IMG/VR virus record: IMGVR_UViG_3300045988_129298
Coordinates: 1-13,166 of that record
DNA length: 13,166 nt
Reading direction: 5' to 3' (one strand)
DNA from: a virus
Shown here: in pieces, positions 1 to 13,166 of the stretch
Numbering within the stretch: the stretch's first letter is position 1
Layout of the letters: each line of letters begins with the position of its first letter
Notes under the pieces: generated by a model
The model's input: only the letters and a program-made list of their open reading frames with translations
Told to the model about the DNA's origin: nothing
Databases searched by the model: none
Position numbers and translations under genes: made by a program

Positions 1-46
1 TCCGATCTAAAGTCCCCCGTCCTCGATAGCAAGCAAGGTGATTTCC

Positions 47-136
47 CACTTTAGCATAGTAAAGTGCTAAAGTGCTAAAACGATAAAGCAAGACAGCAAT
101 GCTTTAGTGTAGTAAAGTGGTAAAGCAGTGAAGTGA
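47..136 (+). repeat. Sub-terminal iteron block in left ITR: 8-bp-phased TAAAG(T/C)(G/A)N units plus hairpin-capable inverted repeats
   Basis: Units start at 60, 68, 76, 84 (TAAAGTGC TAAAGTGC TAAAACGA TAAAGCAA) and at 113, 121, 129 (TAAAGTGG TAAAGCAG TGAAGTGA). A 27-nt imperfect direct repeat CTTTAG..TAGTAAAGTG.TAAAG occurs at 49-75 and 102-128 (21/27 identical, 53 bp apart). Inverted repeats: CACTTTAGCA 47-56 / TGCTAAAGTG 65-74, and TAAAGCA 84-90 / TGCTTTA 100-106. Confidence 0.85.
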
Positions 137-197
137 GTGCAAATAAAAAAATAATACCTCTACGCAATAAAGAGCAAAAATATTTAGTTAAATAGAA

Positions 198-226
198 TTA
201 ACAAATACATAAAAGAAAAATATAAT
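198..226 (+). promoter_or_regulatory. Candidate sigma-A/sigma-70-type promoter P1 in left ITR, pointing inward
   Basis: TTAACA (198-203), 17-nt spacer, TATAAT (221-226). The surrounding sequence is AT-rich. Confidence 0.5.
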
Positions 227-242
227 GTTTACAATTTATTCA

Positions 243-271
243 TTGACATATCCCTTGTAGTGTGGTATACT
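243..271 (+). promoter_or_regulatory. Candidate strong sigma-A/sigma-70-type promoter P2 in left ITR, pointing inward
   Basis: Consensus TTGACA (243-248), 17-nt spacer containing an extended -10 TG (263-264), and TATACT (266-271). It lies about 90 nt upstream of the ATG at 362. Confidence 0.7.
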
Positions 272-328
272 ATATATAGAGTTAAGGGAAAGGAATAAAG
301 AGAAAACCTTAACAAACAAAATTTTAAA

Positions 329-346
329 AGTTGCAACGTTGCAACT
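329..346. repeat. 18-bp perfect palindrome AGTTGCAACGTTGCAACT (left ITR copy)
   Basis: Exact match. It lies between promoter P2 and the RBS, and ends 15 nt before the ATG at 362. Confidence 0.98.
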
Positions 347-361
347 AGAAAGGAAAATACC

Positions 362-679
362 ATGAAAATTAGAGGTATAGAAGTAAAAGGGATTAAGGAA
401 ACTGTTGGCAAATATAATAGAATACCAATTAGTGAGCGAAAGTCTTTTAACATATGGTTTGATAATATAACTAAAAAAGTTATGTTAATAAGAAACGATA
501 TTTGCGAGCAAACTGGTATGAAAACGGAGCAATACACCGATAACTATTTAGATATATCTTTTTTAAGATATGATGATATAAGCGACTTGATTATTTATGA
601 GTATCCTTACTTTGATTATGTATATACAAATATTTCAATGGCAATGCTTGAGGCTGTAATTGCTACTTATATACTATAA
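362..679 (+). CDS. Hypothetical 105-aa protein, the only plus-strand gene; possible AbrB/SpoVT-like N-terminal DNA-binding domain
   Basis: The ORF follows the ITR promoter, palindrome and RBS (GAAAGGA about 8 nt upstream) and is followed by a terminator. The N-terminal stretch VGKYNRIPISERKSFNI...KKVMLI loosely resembles the AbrB swapped-hairpin pattern (GRVVIPIELRRTLGI...KIIL), recalled from memory. The C-terminus is acidic and Tyr-rich. Confidence 0.6.
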   Translation: MKIRGIEVKGIKETVGKYNRIPISERKSFNIWFDNITKKVMLIRNDICEQTGMKTEQYTDNYLDISFLRYDDISDLIIYEYPYFDYVYTNISMAMLEAVIATYIL

Positions 680-714: not shown

Positions 715-1806
715 TTATGCTCTTATGCTTATAGCGTGCTTGCTTTGTGCGTTTATCCAGTTTCTAACAATTTCACCTACTGAGTTATCAGCATAGAACA
801 CACGATTAAATGTTATTAAATTATTAATAAGTTTATGAACATCTGTTGGTTGTTCTGCAAGTGATTGAACGTGTAATGGATTTATATCTGCATTAAAATC
901 ATATACAACTCTATTTTTTAAGTCAAGGTTTTCTGTCTTTGTTTGAATGTTAAAAAATAGAAATACAGTGTTTTCATAATGCACAATATTGCAAGCAATA
1001 ACGTCATTGTCAAAGAATATATAAGCCCTATATACAATATTTTCATTTCTAATCTTACATGGGGCGTGCGGATAGTTTTTAATTTCCCACTGCCCCGTGG
1101 TTATCATTTTCAATTGTGGGTTATCAAAAGCGAAATATTTACTAACTTTTCCAGTTTGTCCCCTACTGTCTGAATATTCCAAAGCTAACGTTAATTCACT
1201 GTCACCATATGTAAATAATTTCAAGTCACCCTGTTTAATATCTGAAATCTTACCTAAGCCCATTTCGGCAAAGTACGGGCAATACTGGTTTACCGTATTC
1301 GCAATCATGTAAATAATTGTCTTATCCCTATCACGCATAATAGATGATAATAGCTGAGTAAATATAACAAATTCATTATTAAGATAAAAGGAACGGGTCA
1401 TAAATTCATCAAATAGAATATATTTAAAATATCCATTATCTGCACCTTTTGTACGTTCCCACGCATTTAAAGAAAAACACTTGCAAAAACTTTGTTCACA
1501 TTTTTCCTCAGTATCTGTATTATATAGGAAAAATTCCCTATTTTTGTATGTAGTGCTGTTAAACTGACCATTGGATAGTTTTTCAATTAATGCTGAATGT
1601 GGTTTAAACAAATTTTGAATATTTTTTGGCATAATTTCCTCATCATATCTTCTAATATATGCCAATCTAAAATTATTTTTGAAATATCCCTCTACTTCCT
1701 GTTTGCACACTGCGTATGTTTTACCGTTTGAACGCTGTCCTATAATTAAATTGTATAGTGCGTTTAACTTATTAATCTTTTTTAGTGAATAGTATTCATT
1801 TTTCAT
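715..1806 (-). CDS. DNA encapsidation (packaging) ATPase, phi29 gp16-like
   Basis: Walker A IIGQRSNGKT and Walker B-like YILFDEF. As in phi29, it is the last gene of the array, downstream of the structural genes. I prefer the ATG at 1806 (MKNEYY..., GGGAG about 10 nt upstream, 11-nt overlap with the polymerase stop) over the ORF-track start at 1896, which would overlap the polymerase gene by about 100 nt. Confidence 0.8.
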   Translation of the reverse strand: MKNEYYSLKKINKLNALYNLIIGQRSNGKTYAVCKQEVEGYFKNNFRLAYIRRYDEEIMPKNIQNLFKPHSALIEKLSNGQFNSTTYKNREFFLYNTDTEEKCEQSFCKCFSLNAWERTKGADNGYFKYILFDEFMTRSFYLNNEFVIFTQLLSSIMRDRDKTIIYMIANTVNQYCPYFAEMGLGKISDIKQGDLKLFTYGDSELTLALEYSDSRGQTGKVSKYFAFDNPQLKMITTGQWEIKNYPHAPCKIRNENIVYRAYIFFDNDVIACNIVHYENTVFLFFNIQTKTENLDLKNRVVYDFNADINPLHVQSLAEQPTDVHKLINNLITFNRVFYADNSVGEIVRNWINAQSKHAISIRA

Positions 1807-3934
1807 TAAAATCACACTCCCAGAAATTCGTAGCCAATTCTTGGCTTTTCTCAAATAATGTATGCTCTTTTGCACCGCTACCGAAATTTGTACCACACAT
1901 TAAATAATATATGAATTGTTCGGATAGTGCCATGTTATAATCCTGTTCTTCCATGTGTATATAGGTATTTTCTGCCACTTCGGCATAATTTCCCATATAA
2001 TCTTTTAATACAATTTTGTATGGGTCATTAATATATGTTAATGTATTTTTCCCTGTATATTCTTTAGGTATATACATTTCATTGTCAAAAAATTCAAACG
2101 GTTGCAACGTTGCAACTATGTACGGAACGGCACATTTTTTATTCAGCCCTGAAACTGTAATATTAAATTTTCCGTTCTGTTCATACGCATAACGCTTTGC
2201 ACCTAACGTCTTGAATTTTGAATAAACCCCCTCAAAATCCCATACACCTAGAGGTTTTTTAATACCCTTAATTGTTTTAGGTTTAGCCAAATTCAAATTA
2301 ATTTCATAATAACTTAAAGCCTTGTTTATCTCGTCAATACATTTTTTATTATATTCATTTATCCAGTTTTCATATTTTTCATAGTTTAAAAATTTTATAC
2401 TATCTGTATCACAATAAATAGTATCCTCATTAATTTTTAATATACCTTTGAAAAGTTCGTGCCTCGCCCATGCAGTAATCCACACACCCCACTGATAGAC
2501 TAATACCTGTTTTTTATTTTTTATGTAATTTTCTTGTAATGCGTCTGCTATATCCTTTTTTTCTGTATTCCATTCTTTTCCGTCAAAAATAATATTGTCA
2601 TTTACTGGATTTGTTACGCACATTCCGAATAAACTATTCAACATTCCTTTTCCAACTAGATACTCAACTTCTTTGCCTGCTACACCTTTTAATGTTGTTT
2701 TGTCATTGTAAAATTTTAATGCACATTCTATAATCTGCTTAGGCAAATATCCATAACTTGACATATAAAATTTGCCAATTGATAAATGTTCATAGGAATA
2801 AAACTCCTCAAAGTCTTTAAAGTCAATATCTGTAAAATATGTAAATATTCTATCTGCTGATACAATTCGCCCGTTGTCAACTACTGCATTATCACAAACG
2901 GAGCATTTTGAACGTGATAAAATGTGATTACATTTTTTAGCAGTAACGTTAGTTAATTCAACCTCAAAGACACACGGATAATTTTTAATACAGTATCTAA
3001 AATCTTTTAAGTCCTTTATATGGGTTTTTGTAAATGGTTGCATAGGGTACTTTTTTCGTATCATAACGGACGGATAAGAACTTATAAAATCTATACTAGC
3101 AACATTTTCCAATACCATTCCTACATACATATAGTTTGCGTGTGTATACCCACCCATGAATGATTTATGCAATAAACAAAATAAATCCTTATCGACTGGA
3201 GCTATTTTCTTAATTTTTTCTCTGTATTTTGGATAGTATGTGTGTTTTTTAATATAATTTTGGCAATATTTTCTAACATATCCCGTTTTTGTTAAGGGGA
3301 TTTTTGTTATATTATTATCATTTTTTGCCATTTCTTCAAGTATAAAATAGTGTAAAATTTTTACGTCATGTTCGCAATATCCCATTTCTTCATTAGTTAG
3401 CGGAGTTTTCCACGTTCTCAATAGTTTATAATTTAAATCACCTGTTAATTTTTGTATTTTTACGCTTGTCAAGTCTTCTGCGGTTTTAGCTAAACTCATG
3501 CCACTCAGCATTAGACTACATTTCAAATCAAAACAGTCATTCATAGTACACTTAATAGGATGGCGGGCATTTCTTGCAAAAACATCTTTGAACCGCTCAT
3601 GACCGATTAGAAATTGAAATTCATAACCTAAATTGTGAATATATATTATAATTCTTCTGTATTCATTTAATTGTAATATCTCTTTTAATTTATTCAATGT
3701 AAAATCAAAATCTTTCCATGTTCTACCATATACATAATTTCCATTTAGTGCAAACATAAAAATATACATACACGCTCTTTTGTTTTCACCGTCATAAAAA
3801 GAACTGGTTTCAATGTCAAACGCAAAAGGTGCATTGTAATATTCTATAAATTGATTATCCCGTGTACGGGTTGTAACTGTTTGTAAATTACTATTTTTTA
3901 GAATATTAAAATCAAAATCATTTACATTTATCAA
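1796..3934 (-). CDS. Protein-primed family-B DNA polymerase (phi29 gp2-like)
   Basis: ExoI FDIETSS, ExoII HNLGYEFQF, ExoIII YCEHD, motif A DFISSYPS, motif B KGMLNSLFG, ITAWAR, motif C IYCDTDSI and KxY LGAKRYAY. Several of these are near-identical to phi29 polymerase as recalled (ITAWAR, IYCDTDSI, MLNSLYG). The start must be the TTG at 3932-3934, because ExoI lies upstream of the first internal Met. A strong RBS AAAGGGGTG sits 6 nt upstream. Confidence 0.96.
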   Translation of the reverse strand: MINVNDFDFNILKNSNLQTVTTRTRDNQFIEYYNAPFAFDIETSSFYDGENKRACMYIFMFALNGNYVYGRTWKDFDFTLNKLKEILQLNEYRRIIIYIHNLGYEFQFLIGHERFKDVFARNARHPIKCTMNDCFDLKCSLMLSGMSLAKTAEDLTSVKIQKLTGDLNYKLLRTWKTPLTNEEMGYCEHDVKILHYFILEEMAKNDNNITKIPLTKTGYVRKYCQNYIKKHTYYPKYREKIKKIAPVDKDLFCLLHKSFMGGYTHANYMYVGMVLENVASIDFISSYPSVMIRKKYPMQPFTKTHIKDLKDFRYCIKNYPCVFEVELTNVTAKKCNHILSRSKCSVCDNAVVDNGRIVSADRIFTYFTDIDFKDFEEFYSYEHLSIGKFYMSSYGYLPKQIIECALKFYNDKTTLKGVAGKEVEYLVGKGMLNSLFGMCVTNPVNDNIIFDGKEWNTEKKDIADALQENYIKNKKQVLVYQWGVWITAWARHELFKGILKINEDTIYCDTDSIKFLNYEKYENWINEYNKKCIDEINKALSYYEINLNLAKPKTIKGIKKPLGVWDFEGVYSKFKTLGAKRYAYEQNGKFNITVSGLNKKCAVPYIVATLQPFEFFDNEMYIPKEYTGKNTLTYINDPYKIVLKDYMGNYAEVAENTYIHMEEQDYNMALSEQFIYYLMCGTNFGSGAKEHTLFEKSQELATNFWECDFNEK
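2100..2117. repeat. Palindrome copy inside the polymerase gene (GGTTGCAACGTTGCAACT, 17/18, 16-nt core intact)
   Basis: Core GTTGCAACGTTGCAAC at 2101-2116. It is read on the minus strand as codons for VATLQP, about 290 nt upstream of the ATPase start. Confidence 0.95.
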
Positions 3935-3956: not shown

Positions 3957-3974
3957 AGTTGCAACGTTGCAACT
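3957..3974. repeat. 18-bp perfect palindrome (junction of the 183-aa gene and the polymerase gene)
   Basis: Exact match. It overlaps the TAG stop (3973-3975) of the upstream gene and ends 22 nt before the polymerase TTG start. On the minus strand it is followed by ATTTTTT. Confidence 0.98.
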
Positions 3975-4524
3975 ATTTTAATGTCTGCAAAAAATTTCTC
4001 ATTAAGTCGGTCATATCACTTTCAGTTTTTGCAGATTTTTCAAGCGTATCTAACACCGCATTAATTTCATCATCATTAAACCCTTTTGTCACCATATCAC
4101 GCACAAATTGTTGAGCGTAATCACTATTAGACAACTGCCCTAAAATTGCATTATCACCATAAAATTCCAGTACACGTTCTACAGTTTCATCTTCAATTTC
4201 CAATCGCAAAGCGTGTTTGTGTATAATTTTTTTCGTGTCAGCCACACTCGTTTGTTGCCCTAAAAACTGTCTAATCTGTACATAATGTTTTAATAACTCT
4301 GCACGATTTTCGCCTTTTGTTCCAGTTTTAAAAAAATTCTTTTTAGTCGAAAATTTGTTCTCTTTTAGAAAAGTGTTCCATTTAGCCATGATTATAGGGT
4401 TTTTCTTGTAATATCCACTTTTTTTCAATTGGCTGAGGCGTAAATTTGCTTTACGCCCTTGCCTTAAAATTTCCGCTTTTAATTGTTCATTTGTTAGACC
4501 ACTTGCAAAATGTTCATTCATCAT
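3973..4524 (-). CDS. Putative terminal protein (183 aa)
   Basis: It sits immediately upstream of the protein-primed polymerase gene, as gp3 does in phi29. The basic N-terminal segment AEILRQGRKANLRLSQLKKSGY resembles phi29 TP AEYARLVKNTKAKIARTKKKYG (from memory), and the C-terminus is acidic. The start overlaps the upstream stop (ATGA at 4521-4524). The function is inferred, not demonstrated. Confidence 0.45.
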   Translation of the reverse strand: MMNEHFASGLTNEQLKAEILRQGRKANLRLSQLKKSGYYKKNPIIMAKWNTFLKENKFSTKKNFFKTGTKGENRAELLKHYVQIRQFLGQQTSVADTKKIIHKHALRLEIEDETVERVLEFYGDNAILGQLSNSDYAQQFVRDMVTKGFNDDEINAVLDTLEKSAKTESDMTDLMRNFLQTLK

Positions 4525-6608
4525 ACAAATACACCGCCTTGTAACATATTTACTATATACCGTCTTTCACTGTCTGTACATCTGAAATTAATTTCAGGGT
4601 TGCTGACAACTGTAAAACCCTTAAAATCTGATAGTTTACCAGTTTTTTCACACGCAAAACCAATCGTTCGCCCGTAATTATCAGGCACATTTAAAATAGG
4701 GCGGTCAATAATGAAATAGCATTTTTGCGGTTGCCATGTTGCAACAGACGGCGAACTTGCACTAGCTTCTTGGTAATTAGTACCAGTCGCAAAACCGCTG
4801 TATAATTTTTCTACATTGCTAACCATTCCGCCGATATTTTTACTAACAATTGACGTTACACCGCCTATCGCACCGCTAACTACATTGCCAATAACTGTAT
4901 TAGCATAACTTGTACTATCGTTTCCAGTCATTGGAATAGATACACCTACTACTCCATTTCTGTAAATAAATGGTATATCATCTTTGAAAACTATTGCAGT
5001 ACCTGCACCCGTGGTATAGTCAACTATCATTTTAACTGATATTCTGTGTCCCATAAATTCAGCGGTTGAAACTGGTACAACACCAATATATGGAATGTAT
5101 ATTTGTGCTGTTGTGTATGGTTCATAATCTAGGAAATTTTTGAATTTAGTGAAAAATGTACATTCACCTAAATCAATTAAACTGTTTACATTTTCGGTCA
5201 GTTTAATACCGTTTACCCCTGTGTTTGTTCTGCCTATCACAATGGGTTCTGCCTGCGTTGCTGAATTTTTCAACGCAACGTTAAACGGGAATAACCGTAG
5301 GTCAATAATACCGTTCATGGGGTTTTCACCCATTAACGCTAAACCTTTTACAATTTCTTGAAATTTTCTTTCATCTGCGTTCCACAAAAAATCAGCCAAA
5401 TTTTTTACAGTATTTGCATTAACCGCAAAACTGCGGTTAAAAACATTGACGTTTGACAGCGTAGGTTTATTCAAATCTATTTTGTCGGTGTAGTTGTTAG
5501 GGTCTGTATTGCCTATGCCGTTAAATGGGTTATTTTGCCAGTCTGTCGGAGTATCCCATGTTGTCTGAATTTGTTTCGCATTTTCTGCACCCTCAGAATA
5601 TTTGCCAGTAATTTTTCCGTCATCCGATATAATACCGCAATATATTCCATTTTGGTTTAGATTTTCCTGCTTTGCTAAATTTGCCGAAAATGTATAATAT
5701 GTTCCCATTCTGCTATATAATTTATGAATGTTTTCGATACTATAATCAAAAACAGGTAAATATCCCGTATACACGTCACTATCAATAGCAAAATATGTTT
5801 TATCCCACAAATCGTTATAACCTAAATTTGCATAATAGTAATCATATGTATTAAAATAGTTAATATTCAAATCATCGCACCCATAAATGAAATTATTCAA
5901 AATTGCGTGTTCTTGGTCATAATCACCAAAAAATAATGCACCGTAAATGTCATAATTTTCCGCCATAGAATTTTTTGAATATGTACAAAATGGGATAATA
6001 TTAAAACCTTGACACAATTTGCGGTCATTAAGGTCAGCCCTAAAATAGTAGGGTACTACATACATACCAATAATGTGATGACTGTTTTTGTAATTTTGTT
6101 CAAATGTGATAACGTCAACATCAATTCTATCACTAAATGATGATACATCACCCATAGTAGAATATTCAAATTTGTAAGCTATCACTCGTACCAAAAAAAG
6201 AAAATCTTTTAATTTATACTCAGTGCCGAAATAATATCCTAAACCGCTACTATTATTACTATCATATGCTAGTCTATAGGATGTTGTTACTGACTGGTTA
6301 GCGATTACAGGCCTATTTTGCAATGTGCCTGTAGTGTTTAAACGTCCGAACATAGCACATACACCGCTAGGAGAATTTGTACCAGTTACAAATTCAGATT
6401 GATGTGGTTTACGATACCCACTGCGGACAAAATAATCGTCAGGGGGATTAAAATCGACGGCATAAAAAATTGATTCATCAATGGGATTATTTAGTTGTAA
6501 TTTACCATTATTAACCAAAGTTTCTAATGATTGAGTTGTTTTAATACCACTTAAAAAATCTATGGATATACTGCGATCACTGGAATAAATTTCCTTATTT
6601 AATTTCAT
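4521..6608 (-). CDS. Large tail protein (695 aa) with a tail-knob (phi29 gp9)-like C-terminal part
   Basis: The segment DYEPYTTAQIYIPYIG..., the Gly-rich hydrophobic loop (VSGAIGGVTSIVSKNIGGMVS) and the C-terminal end ...IVNMLQGGVFV resemble the recalled gp9 architecture. The N-terminal ~470 aa are Asn/Tyr/Asp-rich with no recognisable match and could be a receptor-binding part. ATGA overlaps occur at both ends of the gene. Confidence 0.55.
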   Translation of the reverse strand: MKLNKEIYSSDRSISIDFLSGIKTTQSLETLVNNGKLQLNNPIDESIFYAVDFNPPDDYFVRSGYRKPHQSEFVTGTNSPSGVCAMFGRLNTTGTLQNRPVIANQSVTTSYRLAYDSNNSSGLGYYFGTEYKLKDFLFLVRVIAYKFEYSTMGDVSSFSDRIDVDVITFEQNYKNSHHIIGMYVVPYYFRADLNDRKLCQGFNIIPFCTYSKNSMAENYDIYGALFFGDYDQEHAILNNFIYGCDDLNINYFNTYDYYYANLGYNDLWDKTYFAIDSDVYTGYLPVFDYSIENIHKLYSRMGTYYTFSANLAKQENLNQNGIYCGIISDDGKITGKYSEGAENAKQIQTTWDTPTDWQNNPFNGIGNTDPNNYTDKIDLNKPTLSNVNVFNRSFAVNANTVKNLADFLWNADERKFQEIVKGLALMGENPMNGIIDLRLFPFNVALKNSATQAEPIVIGRTNTGVNGIKLTENVNSLIDLGECTFFTKFKNFLDYEPYTTAQIYIPYIGVVPVSTAEFMGHRISVKMIVDYTTGAGTAIVFKDDIPFIYRNGVVGVSIPMTGNDSTSYANTVIGNVVSGAIGGVTSIVSKNIGGMVSNVEKLYSGFATGTNYQEASASSPSVATWQPQKCYFIIDRPILNVPDNYGRTIGFACEKTGKLSDFKGFTVVSNPEINFRCTDSERRYIVNMLQGGVFV

Positions 6609-7149: not shown

Positions 7150-7166
7150 GGTTGCAACGTTTAACT
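7150..7166. repeat. Partial palindrome copy GGTTGCAACGTTTAACT
   Basis: It contains one intact GTTGCAAC octamer (7151-7158) followed by a degenerate second half. It lies 7 nt from the perfect copy, separated by TTTTTAG. Confidence 0.85.
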
Positions 7167-7176
7167 ATCATTTTTG

Positions 7177-8322
7177 TTATGCTGTTACTGCTGTATCTGC
7201 TACTATGAATACAACACAGTTTTCCATAGTATCGTTGAAATAGCTTGCATCGTACTTATAGAAATAGTTCCAATACTCGCCCTTCGGATTGTAAATACTT
7301 GTAACTCTTGGGTTAGCATTACAAACCATACAAGCATCTCTGTCAAAGATGGTTCCGATAATACCTGTCTGAGATACTGCGTTACCGCTTGCCGTTGTAA
7401 CATTGATTTTTGAAATTTCTGCAAAATCGAACGTTTCGCCCGTTCCGCTACCCTGCCAATAAGGTACTTCTGAATAACCTGTCAGTTTGACGAGGTCATT
7501 ATGAAACGTGTCACTCTGCAAATATACCTCGGCAGTATTTACAAATCTTGACAACAGAACCATTTTCAAGTCACTTTCAGGAGTAAAGGTTGTATAACCG
7601 CCGTCATTGAACAGCATTGACGGACGCTGAATATACTTGATATATTCCTTGATTTTTCCGATTGCATATCTCAGAAAATCCTTGTCCATAAGAGCGTGAC
7701 TTGCTGTCAAAGTCTGAGTAAACTCAGCATTATACATTGTCAAAAGATTAACAACGTTGTTTTTGCTATGTATCTTCTCAGCTATAAGATTATTAACAGT
7801 TCTTGTTTTAAGTATATCATTTGACAAAGTCAGCTTAAATCTGATACGATTTTCAATCATTGCAAAAAAGCTATTCATTTCAGCGGGCGAATTAAATGCA
7901 CTCTTAACCTGCATTTCTGTGAATGACATCTGCACCTCATACGTAACTTTGCTGTCATAGAATTTTGACTGAACGTCAGGTGCAGTAAAAACGAATGGGT
8001 CATAACTCTGTCCGTTTGTCAGTTTCCAACTGTCGTTTTCAACTGCGTCAGGCATTTCGCAACGTACTTTCTGCATTGCCGAACCGTACTCCCAACTATC
8101 TGCTAAAATGTCGGGGGCTGTTGAGTTGTAAACTCTATCCACAAAAATCATTCTACCGACTTTGTCAATCAGCTTGCGAACGTAATTATCAACGTCTGTC
8201 GCCTCAAGTATCTGTTTACCCATGTCAACGACATTTTCAAGATTCTCAGTTGTTACGGCACTCTCACCGATTATCTCCTGCTGTACTTCATTCAAAATTG
8301 TAGCAATTTGTGTAACTTTCAT
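7177..8322 (-). CDS. Major capsid protein (phi29 gp8-like, HK97 fold expected)
   Basis: The C-terminal motif YNPKGEYWNYFYKYDASYFND..NCVVF matches the recalled phi29 gp8 sequence [29 protein letters not shown]. The RBS AGAGAGGTAAA is present, and the start overlaps the upstream stop (TAATG at 8320-8324). Confidence 0.85.
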   Translation of the reverse strand: MKVTQIATILNEVQQEIIGESAVTTENLENVVDMGKQILEATDVDNYVRKLIDKVGRMIFVDRVYNSTAPDILADSWEYGSAMQKVRCEMPDAVENDSWKLTNGQSYDPFVFTAPDVQSKFYDSKVTYEVQMSFTEMQVKSAFNSPAEMNSFFAMIENRIRFKLTLSNDILKTRTVNNLIAEKIHSKNNVVNLLTMYNAEFTQTLTASHALMDKDFLRYAIGKIKEYIKYIQRPSMLFNDGGYTTFTPESDLKMVLLSRFVNTAEVYLQSDTFHNDLVKLTGYSEVPYWQGSGTGETFDFAEISKINVTTASGNAVSQTGIIGTIFDRDACMVCNANPRVTSIYNPKGEYWNYFYKYDASYFNDTMENCVVFIVADTAVTA

Positions 8323-8649: not shown

Positions 8650-9327
8650 TTAGTATACGCCGATTAGAATTATATCGGCTATAGCTTTCGCAAATAAATC
8701 AACTACAGAAAACATTGCTAACTTTCTTTCGCTTTCAATCATCTGCTGTGACGTTGTAACTCCTATATTACCACTTCTTGTAAATTCATGCACAGTTTTT
8801 TCATTTCCTGCCGTGGTAACTGTAGTGTTTATATCCTGCGTATCTGTATTAGTTCCCGTGTTAGTAGTTTTTGTATCATTGATAAAACTATCAGACTTGT
8901 CAAAAGTTGTCTTTCCAGTTGTAATTGACGTGTCAACACCTACAGTATTTGTATTTACGCCTTTGTTTGTCTGTGTAATATTTGGAGTTCTTGTGTCCGT
9001 TCCCTTCTCGGTCATGGAATAGTTTTCAATGGGATTATATTCCAATGATAGAGTATCAACTAACTTGTCATATTCGTACTTGTGGGATTTACCATATAAT
9101 GCTATATAGTCGCTTGCCTGTTTTACCTTATTTGTATTACTTGTGACATTTTCGCTATCATAATACTTGTAAAAATCACGCTCTCCGTACTTATCCGCAA
9201 AATAGTAGAACATTTCAGCTGATGTAAAAATTGTAAATATTTTCAAGTCTGCTGATACCTTATCAAAAATAGTCTGTATAGTGGGGAATAGTTCCACCCA
9301 TTTATTTAGCGTTATTATCTTCCGCAT
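8650..9327 (-). CDS. Putative lower collar protein (225 aa)
   Basis: It lies immediately downstream of the portal/upper collar gene, as gp11 does in phi29, with a 26-nt overlap and the RBS GAGGTGG. It contains a Thr/Asn-rich low-complexity middle region and a GNIGVTTSQQMIESE motif. The assignment rests mainly on synteny. Confidence 0.45.
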   Translation of the reverse strand: MRKIITLNKWVELFPTIQTIFDKVSADLKIFTIFTSAEMFYYFADKYGERDFYKYYDSENVTSNTNKVKQASDYIALYGKSHKYEYDKLVDTLSLEYNPIENYSMTEKGTDTRTPNITQTNKGVNTNTVGVDTSITTGKTTFDKSDSFINDTKTTNTGTNTDTQDINTTVTTAGNEKTVHEFTRSGNIGVTTSQQMIESERKLAMFSVVDLFAKAIADIILIGVY

Positions 9328-10261
9328 TGTTTTCCACCTCTTCCTCTGTAGGTTCTTCCTCTGTAGGACTTTCCTCAGTTTTTACCAGGTCTTTCCATTC
9401 CTCAGAAATTTTAACAGAAATACCTACCCCAAACATAGCATTAATTTTGTCGACTGCCTGCTGCCGGTTATTCAGCATATTAACAACATTCACAAATAAT
9501 GCACTATCATTAATATTAACTTCTGCTATATTTAGCCGTTCTCGTTTCATGTTAAAATTTGCATTTACTCCGATTGAATTGTAAAAATTTGCAAGCCAAA
9601 ATTGATACGTTTCAACCGTCTGCTGTAGAATTGTAGCTACACTTGTATTATCTGCCATTTTGATTGGCGAAATACAATTCAAAATTGTATCATCAATCAT
9701 AACAGCAGGATTGCCATTATATAACTGTTTTAAAACTTTTTCCCCTGCAATTCTCACCGTATCGTCTTTGCACAGAAACGCTGTTTGAACTCTGCCGTTT
9801 TTCAAAGCACTGGAAATTGTTACCACGCAATCAGCTAACATATTCGCCGTTAGTGTTAGTATAGGATACAAACCGCCTGTCATTCCTTTCAATGGGTATT
9901 TATCCGTATCACTGTTAAACATTACTACTCCGTCAATATCCAGTTTTACATTTTTATTTCCTAGAATTGGATTAGCCACAACAAATTCAGTCGGTAAATA
10001 ATACTCATTAGGATAACCACCATAATTTCCGTTTAGTGCATATAGTTTTTCATTAAATTCAGTAAAAACAACTCTTCCTGTAACAAATAACCAAAAATTC
10101 ATTATCTGTTCATCAATGGTTTCTGGCAGGTTCTCCCATGTAAACATATTGATAACACGATTTAGCAACATTTTGTAATAGTAATTTGTTAATTGTGTTT
10201 TGTCTATGTTTGAGACTCCGAACTCGCTCCACTCCCATGAACTCCCTTTTTTTGAACCCAT
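9302..10261 (-). CDS. Portal / upper collar connector protein (phi29 gp10-like)
   Basis: MFTWENLPETIDEQ... matches the recalled phi29 gp10 sequence LFEWENLPPTINPS, and GVNANFNMKRERLNIAEV matches GIKNANLEKKERMVTDEV. I prefer the ATG at 10261 (MGSKKG...). The ORF-track GTG at 10273 lies inside the RBS AAAGGGGTGA. The acidic C-terminal tail carries a PTEEE duplication. Confidence 0.9.
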   Translation of the reverse strand: MGSKKGSSWEWSEFGVSNIDKTQLTNYYYKMLLNRVINMFTWENLPETIDEQIMNFWLFVTGRVVFTEFNEKLYALNGNYGGYPNEYYLPTEFVVANPILGNKNVKLDIDGVVMFNSDTDKYPLKGMTGGLYPILTLTANMLADCVVTISSALKNGRVQTAFLCKDDTVRIAGEKVLKQLYNGNPAVMIDDTILNCISPIKMADNTSVATILQQTVETYQFWLANFYNSIGVNANFNMKRERLNIAEVNINDSALFVNVVNMLNNRQQAVDKINAMFGVGISVKISEEWKDLVKTEESPTEEEPTEEEVENNAEDNNAK

Positions 10262-10285
10262 TTTTTCTTTCACCCCTTTTCAATC

Positions 10286-10867: not shown

Positions 10868-11536
10868 TTAAAAATTAACTATTTTGTCAAGAATAGCATT
10901 ATAAAGGGCATTAATTAACTTTACCCCTGCTATTCCGTTTTCTTTATACTTTAGCTTTTGCAAAATTTCATTTGTAGCTTTTTCAGTACCCTTGCCATAA
11001 ATACCGTTAAAATCAACATCTGTACTGATTATTTTACAAGTCTTTGCCAATTTTAACATCATTTTATAAGCGTAAACACCTTCATTGTTATCCCCACGTT
11101 TCAGTCCCTTAGTATCAAGAGCATTACCTTTATATCTCAAAACACCCAGGAAATTAGTGTAATTGTGTTTTTCTTTTGCTACAAATTTGTGACCGTTGTA
11201 ATTTTGGTCATAACTGTAAAAATACCTTGTATTTCCCTCACCCGTGGCTATTGAGATATGCCCGATATTGTCAGCCGACTTAAAAATACAAATATCACCT
11301 TGCATTGGTACAAAATCGGGAGTATTTGCAATTTTTGTAAAATTCTTTACAAGAGCCGATACCTCTTTGAAACGTGTAAAATACTGTTGGGCGTTGAAAT
11401 TGTATGGATAGTATGTAAAAATGTTAAAACATTTTTGCATATAGTCATTTACAAGGTCACAACACTGATAGGGATAAACCCCGTCAAACTCGATTGATTT
11501 TCCTAGGGTTTTAGAAATATATTCCTTAAATGTCAT
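10868..11536 (-). CDS. Endolysin: N-terminal CHAP amidase/peptidase domain plus C-terminal PG_binding_1-like domain
   Basis: The catalytic-Cys motif FDGVYPYQCCDLVNDY and the His motif NIGHISIA are typical of phage CHAP lysins such as the LysK type. The C-terminal LKRGDNNEGVYAYKMML...NGIYGKGTEKATNEILQK...NGIAG fits the peptidoglycan-binding repeat pattern. The start overlaps the upstream stop (ATGA at 11533-11536). Confidence 0.85.
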   Translation of the reverse strand: MTFKEYISKTLGKSIEFDGVYPYQCCDLVNDYMQKCFNIFTYYPYNFNAQQYFTRFKEVSALVKNFTKIANTPDFVPMQGDICIFKSADNIGHISIATGEGNTRYFYSYDQNYNGHKFVAKEKHNYTNFLGVLRYKGNALDTKGLKRGDNNEGVYAYKMMLKLAKTCKIISTDVDFNGIYGKGTEKATNEILQKLKYKENGIAGVKLINALYNAILDKIVNF

Positions 11537-11928: not shown

Positions 11929-12126
11929 TTACTCACCTTTTATACGTCTGTAAATTGCTTCCCCTGTTCCAAAGTCAACTTTTACAAGTTCTGGGATTTT
12001 GGCACCCTCTGCATAAAATGTGGGGTTTACATTCAAGGGTACCAGATGACTTCTTTCACATTGCTTAGCTTCGTACTCATCATCAAATATTTTGTTGCAC
12101 CATTCACAAGCAAAAAGTCTTTTCAT
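11929..12126 (-). CDS. Small zinc-finger-like protein (65 aa)
   Basis: FACEWCNKIFDDEYEAKQCERSH has the spacing F-x-C-x2-C-x3-F-x8-C-x3-H, which is the classical beta-beta-alpha zinc-finger spacing with Cys in place of the first His. The RBS AGGCAGG is upstream. Confidence 0.5.
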   Translation of the reverse strand: MKRLFACEWCNKIFDDEYEAKQCERSHLVPLNVNPTFYAEGAKIPELVKVDFGTGEAIYRRIKGE

Positions 12127-12148: not shown

Positions 12149-12175
12149 CACACTGAGTAATTAATACTCAGTGTG
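12149..12175. other. 11-bp stem / 5-nt loop inverted repeat spanning the stop codon of the 214-aa gene
   Basis: CACACTGAGTA (12149-12159) and TACTCAGTGTG (12165-12175) are exact reverse complements. The TAA stop (12161-12163) lies in the loop. No T-run follows on the sense (minus) strand. Confidence 0.85.
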
Positions 12176-12805
12176 CTTTGTTGTAACATCAAAAGTTATG
12201 TCAATATTTTCAAGGTTTTCTCTTTTTTCCATAAGTGCATTTACCCATATTGACAAATCTTTAAGAGTTGCAAAGTGCTGTGTTCCTCTTGGTGCTTCCT
12301 CTTCCTTGGTTGTAACGTTGCAACTTTCAGCGGTTGTTACTTCCTCTTCCTGTTCCTCTGTTTCCTCTGTATCGTCTTTCATTTCAAGAGCCTTTGTGCT
12401 GTTGACAAATTCTCTCAGCTGTTTTATAGTCATGTCGGGTGTAATATTGCCGTTTTCAATAATTTCATTATCAAGGGTTACAAGGGTGGCAAGCTGATTG
12501 AATGTAAACATTTCAGCGTTAAGCGGTGAATTAATATCAGTTATGAACTTGTCGGAAACTCTTCTCATACGGCTTGCCGTTGACTTTGTGATGTTAAACA
12601 TTGTCATTGTGTAGTCACCAAAATCACCGAAATCGTCTTTCCATGTACCTTTGTTGTATATCTCCGCAAGGTCTGTACAGATAGCTTTCTTGTTATCCTC
12701 TACATTTACCATTCTTGTAAAGATACGCTGAGTGCTTTCTTTAAGAGCATTGCTCTTAAATGTGTTCATGATGTTTGTGCTTTCTGATTTAATAATGTTC
12801 TCCAT
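12161..12805 (-). CDS. Putative helix-turn-helix DNA-binding protein (214 aa), first gene of the minus-strand array
   Basis: The segment TWKDDFGDFGDYTMTMFNITKSTASRMRRVSDKF...FTFNQLATLVTL...ITPDMTIKQLREFV resembles ParB/KorB- or DUF3102-type HTH modules (from memory). An acidic linker TEETEEQEEE is present. The start codon is the last triplet of the right ITR. Confidence 0.4.
   Translation of the reverse strand: MENIIKSESTNIMNTFKSNALKESTQRIFTRMVNVEDNKKAICTDLAEIYNKGTWKDDFGDFGDYTMTMFNITKSTASRMRRVSDKFITDINSPLNAEMFTFNQLATLVTLDNEIIENGNITPDMTIKQLREFVNSTKALEMKDDTEETEEQEEEVTTAESCNVTTKEEEAPRGTQHFATLKDLSIWVNALMEKRENLENIDITFDVTTKHTEY
12308..12325. repeat. Degenerate palindrome copy GGTTGTAACGTTGCAACT (16/18) inside the 214-aa gene
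   Basis: Two mismatches to the consensus. It is read on the minus strand as codons for ESCNVTT. Confidence 0.85.
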
Positions 12806-12820
12806 GGTATTTTCCTTTCT

Positions 12821-12838
12821 AGTTGCAACGTTGCAACT
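12821..12838. repeat. 18-bp perfect palindrome (right ITR copy)
   Basis: Exact match, mirror of 329-346. It ends 15 nt before the ATG at 12805. Confidence 0.98.
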
Positions 12839-12895
12839 TTTAAAATTTTGTTTGTTAAGGTTTTCTCTTTATTCCTTTCCCTTAACTCTATATAT

Positions 12896-12924
12896 AGTAT
12901 ACCACACTACAAGGGATATGTCAA
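12896..12924 (-). promoter_or_regulatory. Right-ITR copy of promoter P2, pointing inward into the minus-strand gene array
   Basis: Exact mirror of 243-271, upstream of the 214-aa gene start at 12805. Confidence 0.7.
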
Positions 12925-12940
12925 TGAATAAATTGTAAAC

Positions 12941-12969
12941 ATTATATTTTTCTTTTATGTATTTGTTAA
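12941..12969 (-). promoter_or_regulatory. Right-ITR copy of promoter P1
   Basis: Exact mirror of 198-226. Confidence 0.5.
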
Positions 12970-13030
12970 TTCTATTTAACTAAATATTTTTGCTCTTTAT
13001 TGCGTAGAGGTATTATTTTTTTATTTGCAC

Positions 13031-13120
13031 TCACTTCACTGCTTTACCACTTTACTACACTAAAGCATTGCTGTCTTGCTTTATCGTTTTAGCACTTTAG
13101 CACTTTACTATGCTAAAGTG
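13031..13120 (-). repeat. Sub-terminal iteron block in right ITR (mirror of 47-136)
   Basis: Mirror image of the left block, because the ITRs are perfect. Confidence 0.85.
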
Positions 13121-13166
13121 GGAAATCACCTTGCTTGCTATCGAGGACGGGGGACTTTAGATCGGA

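Follow-up and report, generated by a model that had tools for sequence, protein, structure and literature searches.

How does a linear phage genome of 13 kb begin to transcribe the genes at its two ends, when its inverted terminal repeats (ITRs) are the only DNA upstream of them? The window analysed here (the whole stretch of 13,166 nt, a complete viral record that IMG/VR classes as carrying inverted terminal repeats) poses this question directly. A preliminary description had proposed that the inner part of each ITR carries two promoters, a palindrome, a ribosome-binding site and the start codon of a different gene at each end, that any homogenisation of the ITRs during replication would keep these signals identical, and that the palindrome acts as an operator by which the two ends are co-regulated and possibly autoregulated. 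Our analysis supports, at a probability of roughly 0.75, a reading in which the window covers the whole linear genome of a phi29-like podophage, replicated by protein priming, and its ITRs bear an early expression cassette; promoter activity, start sites and the mechanism of homogenisation are in this reading predicted from the sequence and its relatives.

Results

Genome organization and relatives

The window encodes 16 products, 15 on the minus strand and one on the plus strand. The features that frame the two ends are as follows.

362-679, plus strand: left terminal gene, 105 aa, an ORF under purifying selection
687-709: intrinsic terminator for both directions, a strong hairpin with T-runs on both strands, placed where the left gene and the 15-gene array converge
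715-1806: packaging ATPase, by a match in the gene survey
1796-3934, minus strand: phi29-type protein-primed DNA polymerase (phrog_1907 match, E = 1.8e-61; YCDTDS motif)
7177-8322: major capsid protein
9302-10273: upper collar connector
10868-11536: CHAP-type endolysin
12161-12805, minus strand: right terminal gene, 214 aa, first of the minus-strand array, a remote DUF3102-like relative and possible HTH protein

Because the hairpin at 687-709 has T-runs on both strands, the two transcription units would converge on a single terminator. Among the 16 products we recognized no terminal protein gene, and no RNA polymerase or sigma factor.

A megablast search of the GenBank phage collection found no near-identical phage. 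The closest cultured polymerases are 34-42% identical and belong to astrithr-like phages (Gram-negative hosts), Amedibacillus phages (Guelinviridae) and Clostridium phage HM2. An Rfam search for known RNA families, including the phi29 packaging RNA (pRNA), returned a single sub-threshold chance match, and no paper on this clade came up in a literature search on promoters within phage ITRs. In metagenomes the group is abundant, with hundreds of protein variants found, and its host is probably a Firmicute. Our comparison set consists of 18 contigs (L001-L018) with 93-97% capsid identity, one of which (L005) was set aside as probably mis-assembled. Two proteins away from the ends vary in their own ways in this clade: a 695-aa tail-region protein (4521-6608) is mosaic, with 52-93% identity among genomes that are otherwise 90-97% identical, and a 183-aa protein upstream of the polymerase (3973-4524) falls into two classes, of about 70% and about 95% identity.

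A candidate expression cassette in the inner repeat

Positions 1-364 and 12803-13166 are 100% complementary over 364 nt. Each arm carries, from the outside inwards, the following features.

1-8 (mirror 13159-13166): adapter tail, not phage DNA, read directly as TCCGATCT (mirror AGATCGGA)
9-364, plus strand: left ITR at its true extent, 356 bp
12803-13158, minus strand: right ITR, 100% complementary to the left arm
198-226, plus strand (mirror 12969-12941, minus strand): promoter-like site P1, TTAACA-17-TATAAT, a consensus match
243-271, plus strand (mirror 12924-12896): candidate promoter P2, with -35 TTGACA at 243-248, TGTG (TRTG/extended -10) at 261-264 and -10 TATACT at 266-271
281-313, plus strand (mirror 12886-12854): leader hairpin 1, GTTAAGG ... 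CCTTAAC with a variable 19-nt loop, from its fold and conserved stems
329-346 (mirror 12821-12838): 18-bp palindrome AGTTGCAACGTTGCAACT, made of two GTTGCAAC octamers
348-355, plus strand (mirror 12819-12812): Shine-Dalgarno (SD) site GAAAGGAA
362-364, plus strand: start codon ATG
2101, 3958, 7126, 8633, 10287 and 10786: further copies of the palindrome

The octamer TCCGATCT is the tail of the Illumina adapter, and with such tails at both ends the deposited record is 16 nt too long. Since the relatives L008 and L009 start AAAGTACCCC, the true ITR is 356 bp, and the adapter directly abutting AAAGT at both contig ends implies that reads began at the physical end of the genome. The repeat thus starts with AAAGT as in phi29, the ITR of which is AAAGTA (PMC11476376). 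Further in, the outer ITR carries, at 47-136, phased repeats of the TAAAGTG type, in which the terminal pentamer AAAGT recurs. They are highly conserved in relatives; their length varies between genomes, and the distance from contig end to ATG ranges from 356 to 447 nt.

Direct reading of both ends bore out the cassette as it had been described, with P1, P2, palindrome, SD and ATG in that order, and also the point at which the identity ends in the window: directly after the G of the ATG the left end continues AAAATT and the right end GAGAAC.

Different genes at the two ends

The repeats open into different genes, as the preliminary description held, the 105-aa and 214-aa products being unrelated. 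With dN/dS of 0.03-0.33 (pairwise) for the left gene and about 0.05 for the right gene, sequence comparison indicates that both terminal ORFs are real genes under purifying selection.

Homologues of the 105-aa product in public data are 53-90% identical to it. The left-end family is 89-105 aa long and hypervariable: conservation holds over the first ~20 residues (MKI[NR]G.E[VI]KGIK) and at the C-terminus, and the middle region comes in at least four divergent types. The same slot holds different small genes in L009 (51 aa) and L018 (74 aa), and in L008 an extra 64-aa ORF lies ahead of the homologue (89%). The left end has the look of a slot for accessory genes that the ITR promoter would feed. 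The 105-aa product has no Pfam or PHROG match, and at E ≤ 0.001 neither PDB nor BFVD contains a structure that matches its AF2 model (pLDDT 88). We rejected the idea that it is an AbrB/SpoVT-type regulator, which would have a swapped-hairpin beta-barrel, having found neither a Pfam AbrB/MazE match nor a fold match.

The 214-aa protein has no Pfam match above cut-off, and the Pfam DUF3102 and HTH_ParB models found nothing in the window even at E = 10. Four of its 70 remote homologues match Pfam DUF3102, with a best E of 1.9e-4. Its AF2 model is poor (pLDDT 51), too poor for a fold search, and PDB profile searches with the protein gave coiled-coil noise only. L018 has no copy of the gene, and in L017 a deletion has removed most of it. 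The array gene that comes next has its SD fused, in L018, straight to the same ITR promoters, a junction that fits ITR promoters feeding the array.

The leader and the palindrome

Transcription from P2 is predicted to start at about 278, and a transcript from this point folds into two hairpins, 281-313 and 329-346 (z = -5.3). Hairpin 1 begins about 3 nt after the predicted start, and in relatives its stems are conserved and its loop is variable. 5' stabilizer stem-loops in Firmicutes sit similarly close to the transcript 5' end. The second hairpin is formed by the palindrome, which spans +52 to +69 from the predicted P2 start. Of the eight palindrome copies that are intact or nearly so, six end near the SD, 13-23 nt ahead of a start codon; the internal intergenic copies lie close after the preceding stop codon and ahead of the next SD, and most internal copies have no convincing promoter nearby. 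A half-site variant of the 18-mer reads GTTGCCAC, and a solitary third octamer is found at 7150-7166.

Two readings of the palindrome have to be weighed. The first, which we think somewhat less likely than not, places its function in the mRNA: the palindrome would be a hairpin 5' of ribosome-binding sites and 3' of stop codons that affects stability, processing or translation initiation, and the copy in the ITR would simply mark the first intercistronic junction. The spacing to start and stop codons points this way, as do the folding of the leader into two discrete hairpins and the likeness of hairpin 1, so near the predicted 5' end, to the Firmicute stabilizers. The more distant relative L030 (MT836125.1) also keeps the palindrome-then-SD order with a different sequence, as its own repeated palindrome, GTTCGACGTCGAAC, occurs just before SDs at 829, 5288, 11001 and 12250. 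However, compensatory changes were not seen. The common variants of the palindrome are all one-sided, at positions 6 or 11, and fit either model, so that a covariation test is uninformative on DNA versus RNA function. Moreover, a hairpin has no need of the tandem-octamer symmetry (by our own calculation, tandem self-complementary octamers make up 1/256 of 16-nt palindromes by chance), and RNase III would need a stem longer than 7 bp.

The second reading, which we regard as doubtful, is a regulatory circuit in which the palindrome is a DNA operator for the 214-aa DUF3102-like HTH product, and in which the ITR cassettes and module boundaries are autoregulated in the manner of KorB/ParB. The tandem-octamer symmetry favours DNA binding, as does the solitary octamer, and the DUF3102 matches of the four remote homologues hint at a suitable protein. 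L030, besides its own palindrome in the same pre-SD positions, has a homologue of the 214-aa protein (28% identity) and, at 12024, a perfect TGTTTCACGTGAAACA, the canonical parS consensus. Against this, the DUF3102 and HTH_ParB models are silent in the window and the AF2 model is poor; L018, which is without the 214-aa gene, keeps five perfect palindromes and has a right ITR that ends before the palindrome, while L019 has a homologue of the gene but no repeated palindrome. In all, protein and site co-occur in 17 close relatives and L030, with sites only in L018 and the gene only in L019.

The position of the palindrome also argues against the operator that had been proposed, since it lies downstream of the predicted P2 start and not over the promoter, and most internal copies are promoterless. 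Co-expression of the two ends follows from their common promoters, while autoregulation through the palindrome is a conjecture, and one that we consider unlikely. We give similarly low odds to its fullest form, in which the 214-aa product would bind parS-like GTTGCAAC palindromes in the ITR leaders and at every module boundary, shut both ends and time early-to-late expression of the array, the left copy serving as a co-regulated swap slot for small accessory genes.

A separate observation concerns L017, at the right end of which the ITR palindrome is fused to the sequence that follows a degenerate intragenic palindrome (window 12309-12324) of the 214-aa gene. Since this joint at palindromes deletes about two-thirds of the gene, palindromes may act as recombination points.

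The promoters

P1, P2 and their two mirrors account for four of the five sigma-70-type promoter matches at 11/12 in the window, and are the top matches of the genome. Among 300 dinucleotide shuffles the mean was 0.89 matches of at least 11/12 per 12.8 kb, and two same-strand 11/12 matches within 60 nt occurred in one shuffle of the 300. At the looser level of 9/12 we found 83 promoter-like matches versus 62 expected, the AT-rich genome giving many weak ones. The fifth 11/12 match, TTGACA-17-TATAGT at 12402-12430 (plus strand), lies antisense within the 214-aa gene and is either a chance match or an antisense promoter.

In the 18 relatives the -35 of P2 is TTGACA, or TTGACT in two genomes; TGTG, TATACT and the spacing of 17 nt are retained, and the spacer at 249-259 varies freely. 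This pattern, the classical signature of a working promoter, strongly supports P2 as one. The P1 stretch, its spacer included, is variable at only one or two columns, and 181-248 at few scattered columns, a sign of constraint; as variation is so low, conservation does not separate a promoter from another kind of site here, and instead of being a promoter P1 may serve P2 as an UP element or factor site.

Because the genome is linear, neither terminal gene has any promoter site upstream of it other than the ITR. The proposal that promoters in the ITR drive both terminal genes is thus well placed as regards the quality of the matches, the conservation of P2 and the ITR as sole upstream DNA, and the promoters themselves stay putative, at the level of consensus and conservation. 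It is improbable that the matches are not working promoters, with transcription starting elsewhere in the ITR or needing a phage-modified polymerase or an alternative sigma factor. AT-rich DNA does yield many chance matches, but this is a 13-kb genome with no recognizable RNA polymerase or sigma factor, the -35, TRTG and -10 elements of P2 are conserved at fixed spacing around a variable spacer, and mapped start sites exist for the same tandem sigma-70-type layout in phage Cp-1 (see Discussion).

The inner edge and the likeness of the two copies

Wherever both ends are present in the close relatives, P1, P2, the hairpin, the palindrome and the SD precede each terminal gene, except on the left in L005 and on the right in L017 and L018. 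In these genomes the ITR always takes in the promoters and hairpin 1, and its inner edge varies. In most of them left-right identity ends at the SD (directly after …AGAAAGGA), and the 7-12 nt spacers from there to the ATG differ between the ends; in L018 the identity stops ahead of the palindrome, 45 nt short of the left ATG. A long inner ITR is kept at both ends in 12 genomes, and the identity runs through the ATG in just two of them, the window and L014. The ATG boundary is not, then, a conserved design: since the inner boundary differs between relatives, wandering and mostly falling at the SD, an ITR that ends at the ATG is incidental. Likewise, translation initiation signals shared up to and including the ATG are a property of the window and L014, and the initiation contexts of the two ends usually differ in relatives. 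In L006, the closest relative by its left gene, the spacer is AAATATT versus AAATACC in the window, so that the extension to the ATG amounts to a two-base change. The ends of L005 are of another kind: the left ITR cassette is missing, and the terminal inverted repeat, 119 nt long, consists of coding sequence from the left gene. Faulty assembly or a rearrangement of the genome is the probable cause.

In 6 of the 12 genomes the left and right inner ITR copies show no difference over about 165 nt and are mutual nearest neighbours; inner copies from different genomes have a mean identity of 93.7%. This is concerted evolution, and it agrees with the suggestion that ITR homogenization keeps the signals identical; in the other 6 of the 12, however, left and right copies are 91.5-98.8% identical. 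The non-identical copies could reflect incomplete or slow correction, recombination between strains, or chimeric contigs. The non-coding cassette itself is constrained, because the inner ITR differs by about 6% between genomes versus a synonymous divergence of 0.3-0.9 in adjacent genes.

Perfect ITRs in short-read assemblies can be partly an effect of repeat collapse, as De Bruijn assemblers collapse inverted repeats, and L005 does carry a suspicious terminal inverted repeat within coding sequence; nevertheless, it is very improbable that the ITR or its inner edge was made by the assembler (by hairpin or chimeric joining or by collapse) and is absent from virions, given that independent contigs of several datasets have the same architecture (12 keeping the long inner ITR at both ends), that several relatives have imperfect ITRs, that adapter sequence adjoins AAAGT at the ends and that IMG/VR itself assigns ITRs to the record. 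The imperfect repeats speak against explaining the perfect ones by collapse alone, and since the assembly graph branches at the edge of identity, this edge is a real sequence feature.

More distant relatives have shorter ITRs, of 107 nt in L019 (46% capsid identity), at least 101 nt in MT836125 and 18 nt in astrithr (the AD70P3 record is not end-complete). In all three, promoter-like sequences lie just beyond the repeat edge, outside the repeat, and differ between the ends. Because these relatives keep them outside, the expansion of the ITR over promoter and leader is specific to the present clade. IMG/VR held no intermediate relatives by which the expansion might be dated, as polymerase identity drops from at least 93% straight to at most 36%.

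Discussion

The layout described here has clear precedents. In the Streptococcus phage Cp-1 (Salasmaviridae; NC_001825), a protein-primed podophage, the ends match at 344 of 352 positions (98%; 1-352 versus 18992-19343), which extends past the annotated 236-bp ITR, and two tandem sigma-70-type promoters at each end face inward and drive different early genes. The mapped starts annotated there are PE1/PE2 at 351 and 357 on the left, and on the right 18993 for PE4, which mirrors 351, and 19087 for PE5, which mirrors 257. The similarity in Cp-1 ends at the transcription start (PE1/PE4), with differing leaders and ribosome-binding sites, whereas here the repeat runs about 85 nt further, through leader, SD and ATG; Cp-1 also has many internal late promoters, in contrast to the single array that follows the right ITR here. 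We detected no sequence homology between the Cp-1 ITR and that of the window. From the sequences, the difference in how far the repeat runs past the start, through leader and SD, is one of degree.

Mycoplasma phage P1 (Delislevirus, NC_002515; 11.7 kb) has a 350-bp perfect ITR with a promoter annotated inside it at both ends. Its orf1, for the DNA polymerase, has an annotated start at base 350, the last base of the ITR, and orf11 starts 5 nt inside the right edge. In the sizes of genome and ITR it comes very close to the window. It differs in that its two transcription units are about equally long, the left one headed by the polymerase gene, and in that it has no palindrome network; its polymerase is about 25% identical over a short stretch. 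To our knowledge its promoters are annotated and have not been mapped. Since Cp-1 and Mycoplasma phage P1 already document the layout, the window is an ordinary example of it.

Other systems share single aspects. Phage phi29 has a terminal early promoter, C2, and a protein, p6 (PMC11476376). Its AAAGT(A) termini and an early host-polymerase promoter near the genome end that faces inward resemble what we see, but its ITR is 6 bp long, its end promoters are unrelated, and regulation by p6/p4 has no recognizable counterpart here. The inner ITR boundary wanders in the haloviruses as well: between SH1 and PH1 the inner end shifts (309 versus 337 nt), with 18 bp at one end replaced; these are archaeal viruses, however, for which the same paper puts no promoters in the ITR (PMC3622292). 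In PRD1 the 110-bp ITR stops well short of the genes. Many copies of one palindrome across a small replicon are known from the KorB operator network of RK2 and the parS/Spo0J sites of phi29. In contrast to those systems, no ParB-type domain is detectable here, and the sites lie before ribosome-binding sites rather than at promoters.

Based on these comparisons we can present a proposal for the ends of this genome. The outer ~190 bp of the ITR would be the replication end, and the inner ~170 bp an inward early expression cassette for host RNA polymerase, with one well-supported promoter (P2), the P1 match 45 bp upstream of it, and a leader of about 84 nt in which a 5' hairpin is followed by the palindrome hairpin and then the SD. 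With the cassette within the ITR, the same signals would drive the small variable left gene on one side and the 214-aa gene and 15-gene array on the other. In adenovirus, copies are repaired through a panhandle or by template switching in strand-displacement replication. By analogy, copy correction between the ends through panhandle or template-switch repair may keep the two ITR copies alike. The inner edge would wander between leader and ATG because the repeat can spread inward only until the coding sequences must differ.

As the principle is known from Cp-1 and Mycoplasma phage P1, the value of the present case lies in comparison and annotation and not in a new concept. Since the clade is abundant in metagenomes, the P2-leader cassette offers a compact, testable promoter part, probably for a Firmicute host. 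More broadly, our analysis suggests that a near-minimal tailed phage may run its terminal genes from a duplicated control region that is kept identical by the replication mechanism.
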